DNA from: Zootoca vivipara
Lineage: Eukaryota
Reading direction: 5' to 3'
Length of the DNA stretch: 64,000 nucleotides
Assembly: GCF_963506605.1 (NCBI RefSeq)
Contig: NC_083279.1
Coordinates: forward strand, 55,490,001 to 55,554,000
A program made the position numbers and the translations under genes. The first letter of the stretch is position 1; each line of letters begins with the position of its first letter. Under the pieces are notes generated by a model, which saw only the letters and a list, made by a program, of their open reading frames with translations, searched no databases and had not been told where the DNA came from. Positions 14,438-15,270 of this stretch are shown here, piece after piece.

Positions 14438-15270
14438 TCTGTGGCCAACTCGTCTGCATCCCATCCTTGCAAAGGCACTTTGGGTCCATGCAAATAGGAT
14501 CCTCTTAAAAGGATGGTCCTGGTTGTGGGCAACCCACTTGCTCCCCTCCCTGGTGTGGGTGGAGTGGCACCTCATGCCAGGGTGGCACCACGATCACCCC
14601 AGGCCTCTTGGCCAATCATTTTGAATGGGGTGATCGTGAGGGGGTATAATGGAGGCAGCACAAGATGTGCCAAGCACCTGATTCGAGCTGCCAACACCTG
14701 CCCACCCACCCTTTGATTTAGGTATCCTCTGGCCTTGCTTTGGACTTTGGTTGGTAGCCCGTCTTTGGACAGGGACCGGGTAGGAATTTTTTCCGTTTGG
14801 CAGATTGGCACTGGCTACTTGGTTTTTGCCTACCTCTTAGCAATCATCACAACTTTGTAAGGTTTGGTGGTTAGGCATTGGCTTATTGATGTGGGGGGGG
14901 GAGGGAAGGTCGGCCATTGCCTGCCCCTCCATTGTCCAAGGGTATTCTGTTAAAGGAATCCGGGGCCTGGATCCTGTCTGAAGTCTGCTTGAGGGGGCCA
15001 TGCCAGGCCTCTGGGAACACCGAGGAGAGCTGCAGGAGGGTTCCCCCGATGTGGCTCCATCTTCTGGTGGTTTACCCATACTGACTTCCTGCAAATGGGG
15101 CAGGAGTCTGATATAGTCTACGCCAATGCCTAAGCCAATACCACTCACATTTTTTGTAATCAATAAAGTTGTGGCCTAAATTTTGCCTATTAACCTTAAA
15201 CCAAAATTCTGTGTCAGTGTGAATTTCTTTATTCTAACAGGGTTGCTGGCTTGGGGGCCTTGACACGCAA
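14438..15270 (+). mobile_element. Unclassified LTR-like/solo terminal-repeat unit, copy 1 (candidate DIRS/Ngaro-type repeat)
   Basis: CCAAT (~14612), TATA-like GTATAAT (~14644), CCCACCCACC box, CAATAAAGTTGTGGCCTAAATT (15161-15182) and 3' end ACACGCAA, shared with copies at 45500 and 56715. Left boundary approximate. Superfamily is inference. Confidence 0.7.

Follow-up and report, generated by a model that had tools for sequence, protein, structure and literature searches.

Among tyrosine-recombinase (YR) retrotransposons, the absence of a methyltransferase after RNase H (RH) separates Ngaro from DIRS and PAT. The Ngaro-like, SGNH-carrying element DIRS-53_XT of Xenopus tropicalis has split direct repeats in the order A1...B1-A2-B2 and four overlapping ORFs (gag, RT/RH, YR and SGNH) without a methyltransferase (PMC9210276). 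Isolated A+B units have been reported for the Ngaros of Cafeteria burkhardae, where they were ascribed to recombination between the 5' and 3' repeats (PMC8547959), and SIRE of Trypanosoma cruzi, which corresponds to A2+B2 of VIPER, consists of a 185-bp 5' part, an exclusive internal region and a 220-bp 3' part, its origin and mobility having been left open (PMC6681497). In the Copia element Evade of Arabidopsis, an ENE with a U-rich internal loop flanked by G-C pairs lies in the 3' non-coding spacer, 5' of the poly(A) site (PMC12501189).

The repeat analysed here lies in a 64,000-nt stretch of the Zootoca vivipara genome (the window) and, on sequence comparison, is the ~780-800-bp end unit, A-spacer(X)-B, of Ngaro YR retrotransposons. 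Its full-length parents share with DIRS-53_XT the split direct repeats and the four overlapping ORFs without methyltransferase, and A is of similar length (218-229 against 236 bp), whereas B is longer (about 400 against 152 bp); the lizard elements further differ by the 155-165-bp X between A2 and B2 and by thousands of solo units, neither being mentioned in the accessible part of PMC9210276. As in C. burkhardae the unit occurs in isolation, but in the lizard it has a unique spacer, and the dependence of solos on age was measured here. The unit is built like SIRE, which differs in belonging to the VIPER clade, in its ORF order and in an internal region of only about 30 bp. A hairpin predicted within X shares with the Evade ENE its loop, flanking pairs and position, but it is single-domain, has U runs only 3-6 long and belongs to a vertebrate YR element. 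A search of article listings returned nothing specific on Ngaro in lizards; article supplements may list these families. The element type itself is ordinary, namely solo repeats of a known superfamily, and the 'solo' of TOC1 would be a further analogy. Confirmation of this analogy was absent from the accessible part of bioRxiv 2022.06.16.496473.

Copies and boundaries of the repeat

It is highly probable that copies 1 and 3 of the window (Table 1) are solo A-X-B units and copy 2 a B fragment, likely the residue of recombining A repeats. Copies 1 and 3 are 72% identical (522/722 aligned columns), and the three copies share the ordered blocks described in an earlier note on this DNA, with the terminus ACACGCAA at 15270, 45989 and 57590. 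That note had counted three + strand copies, all of which were recovered with an exact 16-mer (+ strand, at 15161, 45884 and 57491; chance expectation 1.0 even when 3 mismatches are allowed), but the family numbers thousands genome-wide. Its invariant 22-mer has 1,900 exact sites (950+950) in the 1.44-Gb genome of the species, where the reversed 22-mer has 0, and since an exact match is present in only 16 of the 28 B copies picked by a separate criterion, the family comprises several thousand copies. Among copy-1 relatives picked by overall similarity, it is exact in only 8 of 30. The distance from TATA to AATAAA, given previously as ~520-530 nt, was measured at 517 and 534 nt. No conserved ORF was found in the unit copies checked, no Ngaro coding remnant lies within the 64-kb window, and an Rfam search of copy 1 returned a single chance-level match (mir-221, E 0.94).

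Table 1 Positions of the repeat copies and their parts in the window
Feature	Position	Strand	Basis or remark
Copy 1, solo A-X-B, old Ngaro subfamily	14494..15270	+	sister-locus comparison
Copy 1 AA core, left end	14492..14493	+	recurs as final two bases, 15269-15270
Copy 1 repeat A	14494..14698	+	right edge by analogy with other subfamilies
Copy 1 terminal hairpin (in A)	14495-14521	+	
Copy 1 CCAAT (in A)	14612	+	
Copy 1 decayed TATA (in A)	14645-14652	+	
Copy 1 spacer X	14699..14864	+	comparison with coding and full-length copies
Copy 1 ENE-like hairpin	14779..14834	+	GGUAGG/CCUACC stem, two U runs, CC/GG upper stem
Copy 1 X arm	14846..14853	+	predicted partner 15168-15175, 8 nt directly 3' of AATAAA
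Copy 1 repeat B	14865..15270	+	AATAAA 15162-15167, GT-rich tract, terminus ACACGCAA
Copy 1 B long-range helix	14871-14882 with 15122-15133	+	covariation
Copy 2, 5'-truncated B of third subfamily, without A or X	45502..45989	+	closest relative L152
Copy 2 AT-rich insertion, 113 bp	45722-45834	+	
Copy 3, solo A-X-B, most abundant old subfamily	56795..57590	+	sister copies
Copy 3 A	56795-57016	+	
Copy 3 TATA	56958-56965	+	
Copy 3 X	57017-57185	+	
Copy 3 ENE-like hairpin	57100-57155	+	
Copy 3 B	57186-57590	+	

Copy 1 has 29 sister loci at 80-86% identity across most of the unit, and its TATA reads TATAATGG where most sisters have TATAAAAG. Conservation in the sister alignment is 0.27-0.47 up to ~14500, where it climbs to 0.81, and it drops past 15270. 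Similarity among sister copies begins at 14494 for copy 1 and 56795 for copy 3, so that the left ends proposed earlier (14438 and 56715) overextend the unit by 56 and 80 bp. The GCAA taken as boundary or core, at 14434 and 56711, is flanking DNA; the chance of one GCAA per 100 bp is 0.42. The junction between B and A is CACGCAA followed by ATCG, with the general form CAC(G/A)C-AA-A. In 63 old copies the two bases 5' of A are AA in 44, AT in 11 and other in 8, with GCAA in 3, and among young ends AA precedes A in 23 of 28 (two of these rows are mis-anchored). Copy 1 has a chance GCAA at 14490-14493, where copy 3 has ACAA. The shared core is thus 2 bp (AA), present at both ends. As the earlier note had stated, there is no target-site duplication (TSD), lengths in the 59 copies with both ends being no greater than in shuffled pairs, and TG..CA ends are absent from the unit termini. 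A short common core without TSD fits insertion by a YR. The search for an empty site for copy 1 found none, and one other species carries the insertion; its contigs span both copy-1 junctions, which indicates that this insertion is old.

Several other features lie in the window. A ~350-bp SINE with (CCTTTA)n tails, which we take to resemble Sauria SINE, has many copies (26655-27007, 34940-35291, 37012-37364, 19868-20216 and others). A 91-bp palindromic MITE-like repeat with CATAGCTGCCAAG ends occurs at 27564-27654, 52804-52894, 53913-54003 and 63422-63512, and elsewhere also within some B repeats (L016). A 222-aa open frame at 7617-8285 presumably resembles the end of an RTE/BovB-type reverse transcriptase. 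Long near-perfect inverted repeats with 88-91-bp arms and a 10-22-bp gap (42000-42185 and 236-439) are probably small DNA transposons, and two GC-rich stretches with overlapping open frames (35344-36229 and 60110-60796) are possible CpG islands or first exons.

Layout and coding capacity of the parent elements

An SGNH-like frame lies directly 5' of the 3' half of the unit in 1 of the first 30 loci. Used as a query, it gave 1,407 candidates, and in the 30 loci fetched the frame is followed by the unit from ~394 or later, skipping the middle part. Coding copies open with positions 1 to ~228 of the unit, followed in longer stretches by UTR, gag-like, RT/RH and YR regions. The SGNH junction and the 5' end together divide the unit into A (1-228), X (229-393) and B (394-788). 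X is absent from coding copies ending in one B, and is single-copy in full-length elements, between A2 and B2. The pattern joining the end of B to the start of A has only 6 exact sites in the genome, of which two have coding sequence, a shortened B1 and A-X-B, and one is permuted; coding sequence, B1 and A-X-B are seen in this order in the old-family remnants L090 and L091, and B1 is broken in most of the surviving old junctions.

With a related RT-YR protein as query, 82 scored candidates gave 89 matches; the YR frame is open in most, and 20 young copies were picked for an intact YR. The earlier note had read the repeat as solo terminal repeats of a DIRS/Ngaro-type element, whose full-length parents should carry gag, RT/RH and YR in an A...B-A-B layout, and such parents were found: 17 of the 20 copies have the order A1-gag-RT/RH-YR-SGNH-B1-A2-X-B2, with B of 395-414 bp, A and X of the lengths given above and repeats 98-100% identical; one of the 17 bears an additional A-X-B. 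Of the remaining three, two terminate in just one B, and the search for A1 in the third was negative. Full-layout copies have X and the CAATAAAGTTGTGGCC motif in common. RT scores above the Pfam cut-off (RVT_1, E 4e-12), and YR falls below its cut-off with the catalytic motifs present, while a relative, P0004, passes PF00589. SGNH has the GHS, QLGEND and DGVHL motifs, with Lipase_GDSL_2 below cut-off (E 0.003-0.005), and ORF1 is a zinc-finger, gag-like frame by Pfam and motif checks. No Dam methyltransferase match after RH was found at E<=0.05 in two ORF2 products (603 and 627 aa). Judged by split direct repeats, ORF order and motifs, the parents are Ngaro elements, in agreement with the definition of Ngaro in the accessible parts of PMC9210276 and PMC3783388, and the label 'unclassified' given to the family no longer applies. 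DIRS-like inverted terminal repeats with an ICR were considered and rejected, the terminal repeats being direct in a plus-strand self-comparison. The parent protein has its closest named relatives in Lacerta, Zootoca and Podarcis.

Old coding remnants share 40-75% identity with the intact ORFs, and old coding copies carry A and B of the copy 3 type. B of the copy 1 type follows YR/SGNH in 2 of 14 loci (L273 and L276), copy 1 B being 86% identical over 414 columns to that of L273, and copy 2 is 95% identical to L152, which by eye has a coding-B junction. Among the loci read, the old subfamilies to which the window copies belong are without a complete parent.

Dozens of Ngaro copies, in at least three families, have an open YR frame and near-identical repeats, which indicates that the superfamily has been active very recently in the Z. 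vivipara genome. Four copies (L069, L074, L076 and L077) have, 3' of A1, a GT donor-like site, a long pyrimidine tract and CCCTAG/TATAG, a possible small 5' UTR intron on sequence features.

Origin and possible transcription of the solo units

Two samples were compared for the origin of the solos. The old sample, the first 90 of 100 listed 22-mer sites on one contig, contains 66 A-X-B, 6 X-B, 1 A-B, 6 coding- or UTR-B and 11 B only, and at none of these 90 sites does a B lie 5' of A. The young sample was drawn with exact X patterns of two families (45 and 17 sites, of which 30 and 17, respectively, were read) and comprises 43 distinct elements, namely 34 with coding sequence, B and A-X-B, 8 solos and 1 tandem of unclear origin. 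The solo share is therefore 8/43 of X-bearing young elements against 66/66 of old A-X-B units (Fisher p 3e-21). This rise with family age favours recombination after insertion, and solos likely arise in this way; selective loss of long copies could also raise their share with age. Reciprocal products exist, as A-ORFs-B in 2/20 young copies and as tandem A-X-B arrays in 3/43. No locus was seen in both the full-length and the solo state, so recombination is what we infer.

The parent would be transcribed from the TATA in A1, and its transcript would pass through B1 and end in B2. The internal B1-A2 junction would template the missing ends, and the YR would insert the cDNA at sites containing AA. 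Recombination between both A repeats of a full-length element would then remove the coding part and leave A-X-B. Promoter and poly(A) motifs would have been kept across subfamilies because active parents needed them, and not because solos are host genes.

Alternatively, most A-X-B units might be short circles formed in reverse transcription by pairing of B2 with B1 and inserted directly, as a non-autonomous by-product, which we regard as rather improbable. Reverse transcription begins at the 3' end, which would make a short product easy to obtain, young families do contain near-identical solos (L247, L235 and L262 are 99%+ identical to full-length copies), one copy is permuted (L096), and the same question was left open for SIRE/VIPER (PMC6681497). 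Direct insertion predicts, however, a high solo share at birth, and young families have only 8/43, while the 66:6 ratio of old solos to A-ORFs-B would be close to that of break-driven annealing with a rate scaling by repeat distance. The 66:6 excess was also considered as proof of mini-circle insertion and set aside, since annealing yields a similar ratio and young solos are few. A minority of solos may have inserted directly as short units, with recombination after insertion as the main source.

Tandems of two or three A-X-B at the 3' end were observed in young copies (L205, G000:C6 ~6.923 Mb; L224/L225; L242-L244), which suggests that B repeats exchanged unequally or that the template was switched repeatedly. 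The permuted copy L096 (G000:C13:41074000-41083999, 6270-8800) has A-X-B joined to A-UTR, in one subfamily; identity between its two A copies is 87%, and downstream ORFs are absent. Opening of a circle at the other junction might give this order, as might insertion at the end of an old element.

The copies could also be functional host units making a ~500-nt polyadenylated non-coding RNA, an ability which the earlier note had ascribed to each of them and which we find very unlikely. The promoter, ENE-like fold and poly(A) signal are ordered on one strand, AATAAA is kept in 27/30 copy-1 relatives, and copy 1 is old, with both junctions spanned in the contigs of another species. Against this, conservation varies little over the length of the unit (0.72-0.94 per 20 nt), with the 22-mer exact in so few relatives, the TATA of copy 1 is changed, copy 2 holds B only and thus has no promoter, and the copies have undergone CpG decay. 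RNA reads on 13600-16200 (two runs labelled as this species, each read to about 6%) numbered 20 and 27. Of these, 46/47 fit only partly; most lie on the common poly(A) motif and continue as sister copies do, or lie on the right-edge repeat. There was no depth in 26/30 and 25/30 bins, nor over the A region of copy 1, start or end piles were absent, and no copy-specific RNA was seen on copy 1 in this portion of the runs (tissue unstated, limited depth). The claim thus finds no support in these data.

That the units are solo LTRs of an ordinary integrase LTR element or an endogenous retrovirus, the 'unusual LTR' of the earlier note, has a negligible probability and is dismissed, since in spite of the LTR-like order of TATA, AATAAA and GT-rich tract they are without TG..CA ends and TSD, and their parents encode a YR and have only A at the 5' end and only B at the coding 3' end.

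Predicted RNA folds of the unit

The ENE of KSHV PAN has a U-rich internal loop flanked by G-C pairs. In the hairpin of X the lower stem is GGYAGG/CCURCC and the upper stem CC(C)/(G)GG, and there are two U runs. The pattern of this hairpin, defined post hoc, has one match in each of 18 young X copies, always in X, and none elsewhere in 200 kb. Over 20 aligned copies 89.7% of cells are paired, against 25-51% in slid controls, and the G-C pairs flanking the U-rich loop are invariant (20/20). A lower stem pair is C-G in 53 and U-A in 32 of 93 copies; 3/16 pairs change on both sides, a count which 261/500 shuffles reach, the independent changes being few. Folding energy gives no support (local z -0.28 for copy 1 and +0.35 for copy 3), the minimum-energy fold of copy 1 differs from the ENE-like hairpin, and the ENE fold is the minimum-energy one in only 11/18 young 460-nt folds. 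PMC13541005 provides, in its accessible part, a further basis for the resemblance.

Two longer-range pairings are predicted. In one, the start of B pairs with a stretch 5' of AAUAAA, and at four positions of this helix the families differ by compensatory changes. In the other, GUUGUGGC directly 3' of AAUAAA is the partner of the invariant GUCACAAC that lies at the end of X, in 16/18 unconstrained young folds. This X arm never varies and so provides no covariation; it is the core of the invariant 22-mer, and its predicted pairing likely accounts for the invariance. In 16/18 young copies folding predicts a more occluded AAUAAA for the B1 context than for the B2 context (0.60 vs 0.31), these copies being related.

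At the other end of the unit, the 5' terminal hairpin folds strongly (z -1.97 and -4.62), whereas the TTCYGTTA..TCC hairpin proposed previously lacks such strength in copy 1 (z +0.40). The start of A has, in all families (e.g. 56797-56821), a 10-11-bp hairpin adjoining the recombination junction, in which pairing is kept while the sequence changes between families. It might be a folded single-stranded recombination site; the cDNA of DIRS-1 is single-stranded (PMC7192593). In old copies a pyrimidine-TAG at the start of X resembles a splice acceptor; one young family has not retained it.

X, present before B2 but not before B1, is predicted to fold into an ENE-like clamp, and pairing of its arm 3' of AAUAAA would place the B2 poly(A) site beside it. 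In this folding model X would hold the poly(A) tail of the full-length element RNA and shield it. We tentatively propose, as a possibility we consider doubtful, that X is an RNA module solving the problem of two poly(A) signals, by opening the B2 signal and clamping the tail within an ENE triple helix; 3'-end formation and protection would then be restricted to read-through, replication-competent RNA. Our literature search found no paper on this idea for Ngaro with ENE (the 2016 transposon-ENE survey, PMC4864102, was outside its scope), Ngaro with polyadenylation or readthrough, or ENE with retrotransposon.

If true, this would place an ENE in a vertebrate tyrosine-recombinase element, and each solo would be a ready promoter-ENE-poly(A) cassette. 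A testable idea for the production of full-length RNA by split-repeat elements follows from the ENE-like fold and the way it is tied to the second poly(A) signal. As young intact and old decayed Ngaro families are present in one genome, the build-up of solos with age can be measured directly.
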